Source: Candidatus Krumholzibacteriota bacterium
GTDB taxonomy: Bacteria > Krumholzibacteriota > Krumholzibacteriia > JAJRXK01
NCBI GenBank assembly: GCA_963806035.1
Contig: CAWDWO010000007.1
Coordinates: forward strand, 32,001-96,000
Length of the DNA: 64,000 nucleotides
Direction: 5' to 3'
Below the pieces are notes generated by a model. That model searched no databases. It had not been told where the DNA came from and saw nothing but the letters and a program-made list of their open reading frames with translations. This document shows positions 3,034 through 6,430 of this stretch, piece after piece. Positions within the stretch are counted from its first letter, which is position 1, and every line of letters starts with the position of its first letter. Both the position numbers and the translations under genes were made by a program.

Positions 3034-4386
3034 CTAGCCGACGGGCAGGCCGACGGGGACTTCGGCCTCGCGGGTGGCGGCGTCGTGCAGAATTCTCTGG
3101 ATCTCCAGGGCTGTACCGTCGGCCTGGGCGATGACCTTGAAGCTGCCGTCGGCGTACATCGACTCGATGGCGTCGACCACGTCCACTGCGAACTGGCTGC
3201 CTTTGAAGCGGCGCAGCTCGTCCATGCACTGCTCGAGCGAGAGCGCGGCCCGGTAGGGACGATTGGAGGTCATGGCGTCGATCGCGTCGCAGCAGTTCAG
3301 GATGCGACTGCCCAGCTTGACCTCGTCATCACGCAGACCGTCGGGATAGCCCAGACCATCCGGACGCTCGTGGTGGTGATGCACCAGGTCGGCCGCCCCC
3401 TTGAGGAACTTCATTTGCGATACGATTTCGCCCCCGATCGCCGGATGGGAAGCGAGGATGTCGAACTCGTCCTTGGTCAGGCGCGCCGGTTTGCAGACGA
3501 TGTCGTTGGTGATGGCGATCTTGCCGATGTCGTGCAGCAGACCCGCGTATTCGAGTTCCTCCAGCTCCTCGGGCCCCATCCCCATCCGCTGTCCAATCTG
3601 CACCGCATACTTCGCCACGCGATAGCTGTGACCGTGAGTGTAGGGTTCATCGGCTTCCAGGGCGGTGGTGAGCGCGGCCACGGTGTTGATGTGAGCTTCC
3701 TTCATGTCTTCGAAGAGCTTGTGACTCTGCCAGATGATGAACAGCGGCAGACCGAAGAGGAGAAGCGACCACAGTCCGGCGTATTCGTAGGAAAAGATGA
3801 GGAAGGCACTCAGCGGTGCTGCCAGCAATCCGCTCAAGAAATGCCAGGCGTAATCGCCACGCCAAACCTGATTCCAGGTTCGCCCCTCGTTCAACACGAG
3901 TACCGTGCTGGTGAGCGTCATGTTGACGCCCGAAAAAACCATGTGAGCAACGAGTGCGGGAATGAGGAAAAGCGGTGAGGAAAGACTGTCGACACTGCTC
4001 CAAGGCAAACTATGGAACACAACGCCAGCCACCCCGACGGAGAAGGTCATCATCGCGATGTTGAAGACGACCTTCAGCGGAGAGCGGCGCTTGATCAAGC
4101 CATCGCCCACTAGCAAGCTGGCGCCTTCCATCAACATGGCGGCGGCCGGGCCGAGGGTTGCGATCACTGCGATGTCCACGGTAGAGGACGCCAGCCAATC
4201 TCCACCCGCTGAGGTCTTGACTTCGAAGAAGTCGACTCCGATCAAGAACGCGCTGAAGCAGAGAACGGGAAACCAATGCGCCGATGAGATTGGATAGCGC
4301 TGAAATACCCAGGAACCCAAGGCATACGCCGCCAGGATTAGAATCAGCACGTACAGAATTGCGATTGATTTGCGGCGGATATGCAT
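3034..4386 (-). CDS. Membrane HD-GYP cyclic-dinucleotide phosphodiesterase with N-terminal multi-TM (MASE-type) sensor
   Basis: About 7-8 hydrophobic segments, then YTHGHSYRV, LLHDIGK, HHERPDGLGYP, DAIDAMTSNRPYR. Confidence 0.93.
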   Translation of the reverse strand: MHIRRKSIAILYVLILILAAYALGSWVFQRYPISSAHWFPVLCFSAFLIGVDFFEVKTSAGGDWLASSTVDIAVIATLGPAAAMLMEGASLLVGDGLIKRRSPLKVVFNIAMMTFSVGVAGVVFHSLPWSSVDSLSSPLFLIPALVAHMVFSGVNMTLTSTVLVLNEGRTWNQVWRGDYAWHFLSGLLAAPLSAFLIFSYEYAGLWSLLLFGLPLFIIWQSHKLFEDMKEAHINTVAALTTALEADEPYTHGHSYRVAKYAVQIGQRMGMGPEELEELEYAGLLHDIGKIAITNDIVCKPARLTKDEFDILASHPAIGGEIVSQMKFLKGAADLVHHHHERPDGLGYPDGLRDDEVKLGSRILNCCDAIDAMTSNRPYRAALSLEQCMDELRRFKGSQFAVDVVDAIESMYADGSFKVIAQADGTALEIQRILHDAATREAEVPVGLPVG

Positions 4387-4394
4387 GTGACCAA

Positions 4395-4580
4395 GGCCGG
4401 TTGAGAGGAGCTAGACTACCACTTCACCTTGCTACCGAGGACCCAGAACATTTTCCCACCTCACATCGGATTGGATTTGCCGCCATGCTCCGCTAGGGGG
4501 CGGCAGTGAGGCTTCGCTATGCGCTCGGGAATGTTTGCTCCGCTCGGGGTTTCTCTGCAGACAACTCCCCTCAACCGGCC
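4395..4580 (-). ncRNA. Putative ~186-nt rod-like structured RNA/leader upstream of the HD-GYP gene
   Basis: Nested complementarity: 4580-4562 with 4413-4395 (19 bp, the non-Watson-Crick pairs are G-U on the minus strand), 4547-4543/4439-4435, 4535-4530/4452-4447, 4512-4506/4464-4458, 4505-4499/4484-4478. Confidence 0.65.
4416..4451 (-). CDS. Small ORF, 11-aa peptide MFWVLGSKVKW
   Basis: ATG TTC TGG GTC CTC GGT AGC AAG GTG AAG TGG TAG, with GAGGTG SD (4462-4457) 5 nt upstream and an in-frame TGA just before it. Confidence 0.6.
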   Translation of the reverse strand: MFWVLGSKVKW

Positions 4581-4608
4581 AAAAAGAGACCACGACCGAA
4601 GTCGCGAC
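4581..4608 (-). terminator. Intrinsic terminator candidate
   Basis: Minus strand CGCGAC-UUCG-GUCGUG hairpin followed by GUCUCUUUUU, just after the stop of the 249-aa gene. Confidence 0.6.
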
Positions 4609-4614
4609 TTGCCA

Positions 4615-5364
4615 TCAGGCCGAGGCGGCCCGCCACGAGATCTGCTCGAGGGTGGCGTCCTCGTCCTGCACCATCAAGTCCTGAAACTCCGCTTTGCCCA
4701 GGGGACGATTCAGAGCGTCAAGACAGGCGTAAACCGTTGACTCATAAAGAGATCCATTGTCCCAGCAGGTGCCGGCCAGACGCTGGATCTGGCGGTTTGC
4801 GCCAAAATCCAGCACCACGATGACCAGGGACCCGCCGGCCAGGGAAGCCACTCGGGTGGTCCTCAATTGGATCTCATACTGGGGTTTGAGCAAGTTGCGC
4901 ACCGCTTGCACCGCCGCCTGGGCCACCAGTGCCACGCAGGCATCCGCGCCCAGGGCCGGGCCCTCCGAGCGGCCCGGAAGCCCCTCGAAGGCGCCGAGGC
5001 TCAGCTCGACCTCCGCGACGAAATTGCCGCCGCTGGTGGTGGAGTGAACGGCACTGAGACGGATCCGTGGCTCAGAGCGCTCCGGAGTCCGGCTCACGGT
5101 CGATTGGTTTGAGGGAAGGGGGGAAGCGTGAGGGGAATTGAGCTGAACCACGCCGATCTTGCGATGATCGACCTGAATACCGTGGCGACGGAGCACCGCT
5201 TCGACATCGCGCACGATGGGACGAGGAGGGCGCTGGGTATCGCTCAGCACGTCGATCTGTTCGATCTCGCCCTGAGCGTCGAGAATCAGCGACGCATAGC
5301 TCACGTTGCGAATCCTGGAGAGCTCGCGCTCCACCTCCATCACTTTCTTCGAATCGAGTCTCAT
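4615..5364 (-). CDS. Hypothetical protein: small N-terminal domain, P/S-rich linker, C-terminal LeuA-allosteric-domain-like region
   Basis: Clean 249-aa ORF with AGGTGG SD. N-terminal 'RPIVRDVEAVL...VDHRKIGVVQL'. C-terminal 'LAGTC...ESTVYACLDALNR' resembles the end of the LeuA dimerisation domain (resemblance by eye). Confidence 0.75.
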   Translation of the reverse strand: MRLDSKKVMEVERELSRIRNVSYASLILDAQGEIEQIDVLSDTQRPPRPIVRDVEAVLRRHGIQVDHRKIGVVQLNSPHASPLPSNQSTVSRTPERSEPRIRLSAVHSTTSGGNFVAEVELSLGAFEGLPGRSEGPALGADACVALVAQAAVQAVRNLLKPQYEIQLRTTRVASLAGGSLVIVVLDFGANRQIQRLAGTCWDNGSLYESTVYACLDALNRPLGKAEFQDLMVQDEDATLEQISWRAASA

Positions 5365-5496: not shown

Positions 5497-6402
5497 TTAC
5501 TTCGGCCAGGCTACGAGCTGGCGCAGCTGCGCGCGTCTCTGCTGCACGGCGGCCGGGCTGAGATCCTTCAGGCCGCGGACACTGAAGTCCTCCGCCGCGA
5601 AGCTCGCGAGTACCGTACCCTCGATCATGGCCTCCCGCAGGAGATCGTGATCCAGCTTCTCACGACCGGCCAGATGCCCCAGGAAGCCCCCGGCGAAGGT
5701 GTCACCGGCGCCGGTCGGATCCTTGACCCGGTCCAGGATCACCGCCGGCAAGGCGAAGCGCTGCGCCCCGTCGAAGAGCAGAGCACCGTGTTCGCCCTTC
5801 TTGACGACCACGCGCTCGGGCCCCATCCCCTGGATCACCTGCACCGACTCGACCAGGGAGTGCTTCCCGCTCAGCAGGCGCACCTCCTCGTCGTTGAGAA
5901 AGACGAGATCACAGCGCTGCAGCACCTTGACCAACTCGGCGCGCGAGGATTCGATCCACAAGTTCATGGTGTCCACCGCCACCAGGCGCGGATCCTTGAC
6001 CTGCTCGAGAACTTCCAACTGCAGAGAGGGATGGATGTTGGCGAGAAAGAGAAGCTCCGGGTCCTGAAAACTCTGCGGGAGAACCGGATGAAAGTGCTCG
6101 AAGACGTTCAAGTGAGTGAACAGGGTGTCGCGCCGATTCATGTTCTCGTGATAGCGACCACCCCAGCGGAAGCACTCCCCTTTCTCCACCTGGAGTCCGC
6201 TGGTGTCGATCCCCTTGCTCGAGAGCAGTTCCCGCGCACTCTGGGGAAGATCTTCTCCCACCACGGCCACCAGCCCCACCTGCGCATCGCGTGCAGCAGC
6301 GAGCGAGAAGAAAGTGGCGCTCCCTCCCAGCGCGTTTTCGGCCTTTCCCCAGCAAGTCTCCACCGAATCCAGAGCCACCGAACCTACTACCACGATCTGC
6401 AT
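5497..6402 (-). CDS. PfkB family carbohydrate/nucleoside kinase
   Basis: VVGSVALD, GGSA, NDEE, KKGEHG, DPTGAGDTFAGG. Confidence 0.93.
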   Translation of the reverse strand: MQIVVVGSVALDSVETCWGKAENALGGSATFFSLAAARDAQVGLVAVVGEDLPQSARELLSSKGIDTSGLQVEKGECFRWGGRYHENMNRRDTLFTHLNVFEHFHPVLPQSFQDPELLFLANIHPSLQLEVLEQVKDPRLVAVDTMNLWIESSRAELVKVLQRCDLVFLNDEEVRLLSGKHSLVESVQVIQGMGPERVVVKKGEHGALLFDGAQRFALPAVILDRVKDPTGAGDTFAGGFLGHLAGREKLDHDLLREAMIEGTVLASFAAEDFSVRGLKDLSPAAVQQRRAQLRQLVAWPK

Positions 6403-6430
6403 GAACATTCCCCCATCGAAATTCTTGCGT

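Follow-up and report, generated by a model that had tools for sequence, protein, structure and literature searches.

What does the sequence between a protein gene of no recognized family and the gene for a membrane-bound HD-GYP phosphodiesterase encode, and does it control that enzyme? The question is raised by a stretch of 64,000 nucleotides (nt) from Candidatus Krumholzibacteriota (contig CAWDWO010000007.1), referred to below as the window, in which four genes follow one another on one strand throughout, the minus strand: a pfkB-family kinase gene, the gene for a 249-amino-acid (249-aa) protein called A249, the HD-GYP gene and purM. The A249 and HD-GYP genes are 228 nt apart, and the intergenic region holds a structured RNA with a small open reading frame (sORF) inside it. 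The HD-GYP protein carries MASE9, a widespread membrane sensor domain of cyclic di-GMP (c-di-GMP) enzymes for which we know of no ligand.

The reading that we prefer, with a probability of about 0.5, is that the intergenic region is a conserved cis-regulatory leader, composed of a structured RNA and a translated micropeptide gene, that gates expression of the HD-GYP protein. The feature itself is beyond chance because there is covariation in the RNA, coding-type conservation in the sORF and recurrence of the gene order. Across distant phyla, MASE9 travels with three uncatalogued partners: an RNA that is not in Rfam, a micropeptide that is not in Pfam or NCBIfam, and a LeuA-fold protein family whose profile finds 3773 cluster representatives at E <= 1e-3. 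These partners are testable candidates for two questions, namely what the input of MASE9 is and how expression of HD-GYP enzymes is controlled, and they add a case in which a leader ORF is apparently both a regulatory device and a conserved product.

The structured RNA and the reading frame inside it

The original prediction had placed between pfkB and purM an unknown 249-aa protein, a UUCG terminator, a 186-nt rod-like RNA with an 11-aa ORF led by a Shine–Dalgarno (SD) site, and a membrane HD-GYP gene that starts at the 9th nt past the rod with no SD of its own, and it had given purM a separate promoter. All of these parts were recovered (Table 1). The rod measures exactly 186 nt, and for the surrounding 241 nt (4380-4620) the folding energy is -102.5 kcal/mol (z = -4.11), a stability reached by 0 of 200 shuffles. 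Its outermost helix, P1, encloses in order the single-stranded AGCGRAGC motif in one or two copies, the 5' strand of helix P3, the hairpin P2, the 3' strand of P3 with the SD site, the sORF and finally its own 3' arm, which begins within about 5 nt of the sORF stop. An AGCGRAGC-type motif is present in 33 of 35 elements. The terminator-like hairpin directly upstream of P1 (4608-4589; 8 pairs, UUCG loop, tail CTCTTTTTGG) qualifies as a Rho-independent terminator by consensus match only; three terminator-like sites occur in the region against 1.6 expected from shuffles, and the hairpin and its U-rich tail are kept, with differing loop sequences, in four relatives within the genus.

The helices are seen in the covariation of 27 Krumholz-type sequences. 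P1 is 95.1% paired, with 9 of 12 pairs changed on both sides, and P2 is 89.6% paired, with 3 of 5 pairs so changed; jointly, 93.5% of the cells of the 27-element alignment are paired and 12 of 17 pairs are changed on both sides. When the joint structure is slid by 1-3 columns the paired share drops to 24-48.5%, and column shuffles reached the observed values in 0 of 500 cases, the sole exception being the measure of further pair types, reached in 3 of 500. G-U pairs outnumber A-C pairs by 35 to 10 in these elements, an excess that assigns the structure to RNA of the sense strand and speaks against a palindrome at the DNA level.

A covariance model (R1) was built from the Krumholz-type elements, without Bacillota-type sequences. 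It matches the window at 4392-4583 (106.7 bits, E 3.9e-17) and detects a single copy in each of 12 genomes among 41 relatives (9/9 in family f1, 2/7 in f2, 0 in the other families), always at the A249/HD-GYP junction. Among 81 sources it gives 33 matches with E <= 2.8e-6, all directly downstream of the A249 gene. In one genome, G030, the junction turns up at two contig ends with an R1 match at each, and these are read as one locus split by the assembly and not as a second copy. Rfam 15, which includes the c-di-GMP-I and c-di-GMP-II riboswitches, gives no relevant match at E <= 1 in the window region and none at E <= 0.1 in six Krumholz-type and eight Bacillota-type loci.

The sORF of the window has GAGG 7 nt upstream of its ATG, and in most versions with 14 codons the same motif lies 7-10 nt upstream of the start. 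These 14-mers are the commonest form (consensus MLDWLLGLFSKWEW; 19 copies, 18 distinct nucleotide sequences). Their ATG, E13, W14 and stop are invariant, and replacements elsewhere are conservative (L/I/M, W/F/Y, K/R, S/T, D/E). The first, second and third codon positions have a mean entropy of 0.66, 0.52 and 1.04, and pairwise codon differences are mostly non-synonymous (884, vs 277 synonymous), so the peptide evolves, yet within a fixed length and pattern. The signature is that of a coding sequence, with frame and length kept and third positions the most variable. The window's family has shorter or longer peptides (MFWVLGSKVKW, IAWLLGSKIKW, MRWLMSVMLAGHIKW, MTFLEMMLDFFSLAGVIKW). The C-terminal motif G-x-x-x-K-W proposed earlier came close to what is conserved; the actual pattern is a hydrophobic stretch, [AG]-G, two or three residues, an aromatic or aliphatic residue, one further residue and W. 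The window's MFWVLGSKVKW has no basic n-region, hydrophobic h-region or small-residue c-region of the Sec or Phr kind. In one Eisenbacteria-labelled record (L115:4901-5038), the sORF encodes 45 aa with three DGK(G/A)GW repeats past a hydrophobic N-terminus, as though the C-terminal peptide motif could be repeated as a unit.

The element starts 10-50 nt past the A249 stop, and no promoter-like site was seen upstream of P1 in 31 loci, bar one lone match 133 nt upstream in L048; it is therefore most likely transcribed together with A249. At the other end, the distance from P1 to the HD-GYP start is 5-21 nt in six loci of the window's family, from four genera, and the start has no visible SD. In the window the HD-GYP ATG at 4386 is the 9th base past the rod (8 nt between), no GGAG, GAGG or AGGA occurs within the 20 nt upstream of it, and the consensus scan finds no promoter-like site between P1 and this start. 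Of 47 Bacillota-type elements, 20 have a U-run of at least 4 at the 3' end of P1; of 31 Krumholz-type elements, 8 do.

The 450-aa product of the HD-GYP gene belongs to two Pfam families, HD_5 (109.7 bits, cut-off 27.2) and MASE9 (PF20972; 38 bits, cut-off 24.3, residues 70-208), and its translation contains the HD and GYP motifs, as HDIGK and HHERPDGLGYP. Further downstream, the consensus scan places the purM promoter (TTGACA-17-TAGCAT) at 2981-2953 on the minus strand. Its -10 hexamer TAGCAT ends 6 nt upstream of the purM ATG and no SD is visible in 2946-2981, so the purM mRNA may be leaderless or nearly so; if it is, SD-less starts are not unusual in this organism.

Table 1. Features of the A249/HD-GYP locus and its flanking genes, in window positions
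Feature	Positions	Strand	Basis or remark
pfkB-family sugar/nucleoside kinase gene	5497-6408	minus	Pfam PfkB, 87.8 bits; upstream neighbour in Krumholzibacteriia
A249 (249-aa protein) gene	4615-5364	minus	No Pfam or NCBIfam match; fold match from AlphaFold2 (AF2) model and Foldseek
Terminator-like hairpin, UUCG loop and U-run, directly 5' of P1	4579-4608	minus	Consensus scan
Structured RNA (rod), P1 5' arm to P1 3' arm, 186 nt	4395-4580	minus	R1 match, covariation
P1 5' arm GGCCGGUUGAGGGGAG	4565-4580	minus	Pairs with 4395-4410
AGCGRA-type motif, copy 1 AGCGGAGC	4537-4544	minus	Sequence
AGCGRA-type motif, copy 2 AGCGAAGC	4511-4518	minus	Sequence; adjoins anti-SD
P3 5' strand, anti-SD CCUCAC	4506-4511	minus	Minimum-free-energy (MFE) pairing with GUGAGG
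P2 hairpin UGCCGCC/GGCGGCA	4478-4505	minus	Covariation; AGCGGAGC copy 3 (4487-4494) in loop
P3 3' strand and SD site GUGAGGUGG	4456-4464	minus	Sequence, MFE fold
sORF including stop, MFWVLGSKVKW	4416-4451 (ATG 4451, TAG 4416)	minus	11 codons, SD-led
P1 3' arm CUCCUCUCAACCGGCC	4395-4410	minus	Starts 5 nt past sORF stop, ends 8 nt 5' of HD-GYP ATG
MASE9–HD-GYP membrane phosphodiesterase (predicted), 450 aa, SD-less ATG	3034-4386	minus	Pfam HD_5 and MASE9
purM	gene 1846-2946; with promoter 1846-2981	minus	Pfam; consensus scan; downstream limit of the cassette

Recurrence in Krumholzibacteriia and Bacillota

The original prediction had staked itself beforehand on the two protein genes being syntenic elsewhere and had expected a conserved sORF and structure in homologous intergenic regions; both are borne out, in Krumholzibacteriia and in Bacillota-like contigs, the second by the coding signature, the covariation and the R1 matches. 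Its interpretation as a whole is supported in part. The first synteny set had 21 sources, the window and 20 loci. In 18 of the 21 an HD-GYP orthologue follows A249 in the order pfkB-A249-HD-GYP-purM, with two cut by contig ends; for one of the 18 (L029) the A249 homologue was seen only in the A249 genome search. The remaining sources are two in which purM follows A249 directly (L036 and L037) and one that ends after A249. In a further set of 80 genome loci, HD-GYP comes after A249 in 61, purM follows it directly in 12, and no next gene is shown in seven. The spacer of the 61 exceeds 60 nt in 43, the genes abut or overlap in 17, and one locus (L044) is interrupted by a run of N; this run, in genome G004 (L024/L044), breaks into the sORF and into the HD-GYP gene in its 5' part, so the locus was scored in part. 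An A249 match was found in 41 of the 41 Krumholzibacteriia genomes sampled, and pfkB lies upstream of A249 in most Krumholzibacteriia loci.

A strong R1 match together with an SD-led, W-ending sORF is found in 31 of the 43 spaced loci. Five others, in Eisenbacteria-labelled records, have a divergent sORF (e.g., MWELLLDLLSLVFEGKSGWM) and no R1 match, one (L062) has a weak R1 match and an sORF, and six have neither RNA nor sORF. No sORF is found in the 17 abutting loci or in the 12 in which purM follows A249, and a fusion of the peptide to the N-terminus of HD-GYP was looked for in the abutting lineages and not seen. Genomes without the MASE9–HD-GYP orthologue are also without the RNA, so that RNA and sORF occur only where the orthologue is present. 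In a quick tree of HD-GYP proteins, a branch with support 100 sets apart the 21 rows that have an R1-type sORF, and the five rows with a divergent sORF form another such group. In four loci without the RNA (L030, L032, L033 and L034), the HD-GYP start overlaps the A249 stop or is at most 16 nt away from it, which suggests translational coupling of the two proteins. In five loci (L074, L099, L100, L102 and L112), a conserved stretch like GCTCAAGCACGYCGTCYCGCCCGCCGAYA lies downstream of a promoter-like TTGCNN-17-TANNNT and before the HD-GYP start, and looks like a second conserved element in the 5' untranslated region (5'UTR) of HD-GYP in non-f1 Krumholzibacteriia.

Outside the class, the low-GC (guanine plus cytosine) members of the A249 family are mostly Bacillota, and 80 metagenome loci around A249 homologues were sampled, 24 of them with full flanks. 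The gene after the A249 homologue encodes an HD_5 protein of 411-470 aa in 22 of the 24, and MASE9 is detected at E <= 1e-5 in 13 of these 22. The next gene encodes DUF5317, a membrane protein, in 16 of the 22 (e.g., L127:6111-6719). DUF5317 was also detected in the control genomes of Thermotoga maritima and Thermus thermophilus; it is found in 0 of 41 Krumholzibacteriia genomes, where the peptides have no signal-like N-terminus. In L162:6234-7487 and L173:6281-7552, a tandem second HD_5 paralogue takes the place of DUF5317. Upstream of the A249 homologue the neighbours vary and pfkB is not among them; in 6 of the 24 loci (L127, L150, L162, L173, L186 and L197) a ribosome hibernation factor gene (Ribosomal_S30AE and its C-terminal domain) lies directly upstream.

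The Bacillota-type spacer of 150-340 nt holds the same module: AGCGRAGCG, a hairpin with a UAGCGRA loop, an SD-led sORF and a closing helix. AGCGRAGCG is invariant or nearly so in 40 sequences, with the same P2-loop motif as in the window. A helix pairs GAUAUAGCC with GGCUAUAUC, which follows the SD, and this equivalent of P3 covaries in the 40 sequences. In 47 distinct elements, whose sequences differ greatly, the closing helix forms a perfect stack of 7-20 bp. RNAalifold predicted no pairs on the gappy Bacillota-type alignment. In the same 40 sequences, hand-drawn P1, P2 and P3 are 85.7% paired, with 20 of 22 pairs changed on both sides and 33-43% pairing when slid; the structure was drawn from the sequences it was scored on and tends to beat slid versions for that reason alone. 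G-U pairs again exceed A-C pairs (78 vs 30). The R1 model matches five Bacillota-type loci at E < 0.05 (L190, 4.7e-5; L171, 1.5e-4; L165, 0.0046; L189, 0.0071; L184, 0.024), each on the same strand and directly after the A249 homologue. The distance from P1 to the HD-GYP start ranges from -21 to 72 nt in 17 loci.

A Bacillota-type sORF was found in 69 of the 80 loci, one of them doubtful (L195), and 8 of the 11 misses have fewer than 210 nt past the gene; put otherwise, 68 of about 72 loci with enough sequence have it. The peptides are 20-31 aa long (consensus MKKILFALASLLSLVLAGGAGFSWR), with K or R within the first three residues in 65 of 68. A hydrophobic core comes next, followed in 58 of 68 by an AGGA-like motif and at the end by an aromatic/basic tail of 4-8 residues. 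Entropy at codon positions 1, 2 and 3 of the 24-aa class is 0.73, 0.63 and 1.41. No Pfam or NCBIfam family reaches its cut-off; weak matches are signal-peptide-like (e.g., Phr_nterm, E 0.0086-0.11), and these peptides look like signal peptides or single-pass membrane proteins. The two groups share a C-terminal pattern (LAGGAxFxW in Bacillota; LAGHIKW, LAGVIKW, LGGKVYW, LGSKVKW and LFSKWEW in Krumholzibacteriia), and the Krumholz peptides appear to be truncated forms whose basic N-terminus has been lost. The module far predates the class Krumholzibacteriia, and the window is a local, reduced example of a widespread undescribed module. Named carriers of the A249 family include Thermoanaerobacter, Thermoanaerobacterium, Geosporobacter, Alkaliphilus and Serpentinicella. 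Since the family occurs in cultured Thermoanaerobacter, Thermoanaerobacterium, Alkaliphilus and Geosporobacter, and DUF5317 in T. maritima, the module is bench-testable beyond the uncultured Krumholzibacteriota.

None of the neighbours (pfkB, A249, HD-GYP and purM, or DUF5317 in the Bacillota-like loci) encodes a modifying enzyme of the kind that acts on peptides made on the ribosome and modified after translation. A precursor of such a peptide (e.g., one with a Lys-Trp cross-link, as in streptide) was considered and rejected: a radical S-adenosylmethionine (SAM) gene occurs solely in L196, a locus without HD-GYP.

A proposed leader for HD-GYP and its alternatives

The computation itself shows the covarying helices, the signature of a coding sequence, the geometry and the synteny, and from these we infer every functional step of the model that follows. 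In a closed state, P3 would pair the SD of the sORF (CCUCAC with GUGAGG) and P1 would clamp the entire element, its 3' arm ending 8 nt 5' of the SD-less HD-GYP start; neither the peptide nor HD-GYP would be made. The invariant single-stranded AGCGRAGC beside P3 and the AGCGRA in the P2 loop would form the sensor part, and a trigger acting on it would free the SD and allow a ribosome to translate the sORF. At the sORF stop, 5 nt 5' of the P1 3' arm, the ribosome would unzip P1. In the window, the opening of P1 would lay bare the HD-GYP start, which is 29 nt downstream, so that coupled initiation could take place there; in lineages with a U-run past P1, it would instead allow read-through by RNA polymerase. 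The trigger would most likely be either the co-encoded A249, as a dimer, or a small ligand. It is the geometry (P1 tight to the HD-GYP start, the U-runs and the lack of a promoter just upstream of P1) that points to control in cis.

Several observations weigh against such a leader. In the window, the anti-SD duplex is weak, as 58 of 200 shuffles of the same 14 nt do as well. A clade of 16 HD-GYP orthologues has no RNA or sORF, and in 11 of the 16 the A249 stop abuts or overlaps the HD-GYP start; as little as about one loss of the sORF with HD-GYP kept would suffice to explain this, and the related genomes are not independent. In 10 of 24 non-f1 Krumholzibacteriia loci, a promoter-like site (TTGNNN-16/17-TANNNT) occupies a conserved position between P1 and HD-GYP, so HD-GYP may be transcribed there independently of the leader. 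Among the Bacillota-type HD-GYP genes, a separate SD can often be seen past P1, and P1 thus need not block translation in those loci. The comparison of genomes and loci also shows A249 retained where RNA and HD-GYP are both gone; a protein that outlives them is not a dedicated regulator of this RNA. Finally, if translation of the sORF served only to open P1, the conservation of the peptide would be left unexplained. Conservation at the level of amino acids means that the peptide is more than a spacer, and it suggests that the product itself functions at the membrane, for which MASE9 is the obvious candidate partner. The peptide would most likely be located at the membrane and act on the MASE9 domain, and the Bacillota-type peptide may do so after processing by the neighbouring DUF5317.

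One proposal is compatible with the leader and specifies its trigger. In this HutP-like attenuation, an A249 dimer senses a ligand, binds two AGCGRA motifs and decides whether P3 and P1 form, and so controls both the peptide and HD-GYP. An amino acid may be the ligand, bound in the LeuA-type domain of A249. That A249 might control read-through or translation of the RNA had been suggested in the original prediction and would fit the anatomy, with the RNA directly downstream of the gene and the AGCGRA repeats invariant. All 33 strong R1 matches and the Bacillota-type loci have the RNA directly 3' of the A249 gene, and the (near-)invariant AGCGRAGCG is unpaired beside P3, with a second AGCGRA in the P2 loop. 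CsrA was considered as the binder of the GGA-like repeats and rejected. In five genomes of the window's genus, 88-98% complete and each with the RNA, its family (PF02599) was not found, so CsrA cannot be the binder; furthermore, the motif variant AGCGAAGC has no GGA, and the distribution of CsrA does not track that of the RNA.

The structure predicted for A249 bears on the same proposal. The window's protein has no Pfam match at E <= 0.1 and no NCBIfam match, and its profile finds only matches of E > 1 among the sequences of solved structures. An AF2 model built from an alignment of 20 sequences (predicted local distance difference test, pLDDT, 82.5) has two domains joined by a disordered linker: the N-terminal one, residues 1-76, is of alpha-beta-beta-alpha-beta order, and the C-terminal one, residues 99-223, consists of two beta-beta-beta-alpha units. 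In the model, the C-terminal domain resembles the regulatory domain of citramalate synthase (CMS; 3f6g_B, VIA Z 9.2, root-mean-square deviation 2.9, 108 aa) and that of Mycobacterium tuberculosis LeuA (3fig_A, VIA Z 8.4; 1sr9_B, Foldseek E 2e-4, probability 1.0). The LeuA/CMS regulatory domain binds leucine or isoleucine at the dimer interface. The LeuA_dimer family of Pfam (PF08502) stays below its cut-off of 24.9, at 17-18 bits in 3 of 16 A249 family members, and one A249 homologue carries a precomputed PF08502 assignment. The earlier description of A249 as LeuA-allosteric-like therefore stands for the modelled fold, and the window's protein is not a member of PF08502 by sequence. The N-terminal domain of the model matches the C-terminal domains of cation diffusion facilitators and ring-building motifs at Z 7-8.6, a range common for unrelated folds. 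Two loci in which purM follows A249 (L036 and L037, from genomes G035 and G025) have a far longer interdomain linker, rich in Pro, Glu and Ala, and a total length of 290-320 aa.

The homologues are all called hypothetical where they are named, apart from one with the automatic name "predicted nucleic-acid-binding protein", which would suit a role on the RNA. Against such a role, no known RNA-binding domain was detected in A249: the Foldseek matches to double-stranded RNA-binding and S5 domains have a probability of 0.35-0.6 and poor TM-scores. A249 is also kept without the RNA in the 17 abutting loci, in the 12 loci with purM next and in family f3. A complex prediction of A249 with HD-GYP scored 0.00, which counts neither for nor against binding. 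On balance, we regard HutP-like attenuation as a possible trigger that deserves tentative support.

A doubtful alternative, the one put forward in the original prediction, is that the peptide acts in trans only, as a membrane or exported ligand or subunit that binds MASE9 and tunes the phosphodiesterase in a quorum-sensing-like or autocrine way, and that the RNA merely sets the amount of peptide with no effect in cis. The amino-acid conservation across phyla, the confinement of RNA and sORF to genomes with the HD-GYP orthologue, the promoter-like sites 5' of HD-GYP and the frequent presence of DUF5317 as the next gene would all be expected of it, as would the signal-peptide-like or single-pass membrane-like character of the Bacillota versions with their weak similarity to Phr_nterm. 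MASE9 has moreover been proposed to bind a ligand within the membrane, as stated in the accessible part of its description (10.1101/2021.11.05.467447). The clade of 16 HD-GYP orthologues without an sORF speaks against the trans-only peptide, and R1 finds no copy elsewhere in such genomes. The window's own peptide, with only 11 residues and no basic N-terminus, cannot span the membrane or use the Sec pathway, and the tight placement of P1 against the HD-GYP start is left without a reason.

That the element is a riboswitch seems rather improbable. In this case P2, P3 and the AGCGRA motifs would form an aptamer, perhaps for c-di-GMP or pGpG, and the sequestration of the SD by P3 would be the expression platform; the invariant unpaired nucleotides are indeed flanked by covarying helices, and the SD-sequestering helix is conserved across two phylum-level groups. 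The class would have to be a new one, since no Rfam family matches. The core is small, however, and the strict linkage to one protein gene, that of A249, is unusual for a riboswitch.

Far less credible is an attenuator of the trp-leader type, in which scarcity of charged tryptophan tRNA would stall the ribosome at the Trp codon or codons with which the sORF ends, and so keep P1 open. The terminal W is invariant in the Krumholz-type sORFs, W also stands at positions 4 and 12 in 12 of 18 versions, and P1 begins right past the sORF stop, so that an ORF and adjoining helices are at hand. However, F replaces W at positions 4 and 12 in 5-6 of the 18 versions, short of the codon conservation such a device calls for; in the Bacillota-type peptides W is not terminal, and I, L or V often takes the final aromatic position; and nothing ties the downstream gene to Trp metabolism. 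The terminal W could be conserved for another reason, as the final UGG lies within an extension of P1 (GUGG/CCAC pairing). The idea that the RNA is a mere terminator or stability element, or a small RNA derived from the 3'UTR of the A249 transcript, with an incidental ORF, can draw on the U-runs past P1, on the closeness of the element to the A249 stop and on the lack of an upstream promoter, and is nearly dismissed by the presence of the sORF in nearly all Bacillota-type loci with enough sequence and by its frame, length class, SD spacing and third-position variability, which show that the peptide is under selection.

Around the cis-regulatory leader that we prefer, the four parts can be assembled into a self-contained, undescribed circuit from peptide to c-di-GMP, which as a whole we consider unlikely. 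An A249 dimer or a new riboswitch would read a metabolic cue through the AGCGRA motifs and license translation of the peptide or pre-peptide; the peptide would serve as an intramembrane ligand of MASE9, trimmed beforehand in Bacillota by DUF5317 as a peptidase of a novel type; and the same act of translation would switch on the phosphodiesterase under the peptide's control.

Comparison with known systems

The layout of the locus has its nearest likeness in the hut operon of Bacillus subtilis, in which the gene for the regulator HutP lies directly 5' of a terminator-type RNA with short repeated motifs, followed by the regulated genes. The A249 locus shares this layout; A249 is unrelated to HutP in sequence and fold, its binding to RNA is a candidate role only, and the RNA here encloses a translated ORF. 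In trpL, the ermC leader, tnaC and secM-secA, a short ORF in a structured leader alters downstream expression through the position of the ribosome. Unlike those leader peptides, the present one is conserved over its full length and across phyla and is membrane- or signal-peptide-like. Its sORF also differs in lying inside the loop of a clamp or terminator helix, with a separate SD-sequestering sensor that gates its own translation.

Small membrane proteins such as MgrB (acting on PhoQ), SafA and MgtS modulate sensors. The likeness here is a tiny hydrophobic protein encoded beside a signalling system or co-regulated with it, and an interaction is only proposed. The pro-peptides of Rgg/SHP, ComRS and Phr systems are 20-30 aa long, start with MKK, contain a hydrophobic stretch and a short active C-terminal part, and are encoded beside the receptor gene. 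The Bacillota-type peptides resemble these precursors and have weak Phr_nterm matches; their neighbour, however, is a membrane c-di-GMP phosphodiesterase and not an RRNPP regulator, and the Krumholz peptides have no signal-like part. As for A249, the two beta-beta-beta-alpha units are common to it and to the regulatory domains of LeuA (1sr9/3fig) and citramalate synthase (3f6g). It differs from both in being stand-alone with no catalytic barrel, in its N-terminal domain and in a sequence similarity below the Pfam threshold.

The domain pair itself has been described in the MASE9–HD-GYP phosphodiesterases TM1467 of T. maritima and HdgA of Streptomyces venezuelae (Galperin and Chou, 10.1101/2021.11.05.467447). 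The window's 450-aa protein has the TM1467/HdgA-type architecture with the HD and GYP motifs present. Galperin and Chou propose that MASE9 binds its ligand inside the membrane, and the accessible part of their account mentions no small ORF, RNA or partner protein (10.1101/2021.11.05.467447). The RNA, the peptide family, the A249 family and their linkage are not in Rfam, Pfam or NCBIfam, and no description of them was found in the literature, which was covered mostly through listings and abstracts; the MASE9 supplement, Figure S5, might show gene neighbourhoods (10.1101/2021.11.05.467447). The closest published parallel that we found is in Clostridioides difficile, in which, as far as the accessible text goes, small membrane proteins that are longer and have four helices are encoded behind class I c-di-GMP riboswitches (PMC13724677). 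That case shares with the present one an RNA switch, a small membrane protein and c-di-GMP, and its peptide family and RNA are different (PMC13724677, accessible text). Thus, the MASE9–HD-GYP domain pair is known, and so is the kind of logic, in which a leader ORF is combined with a sequestered SD and a clamp or terminator helix; what is new is the parts themselves, and a membrane c-di-GMP phosphodiesterase with a co-conserved micropeptide as their target.

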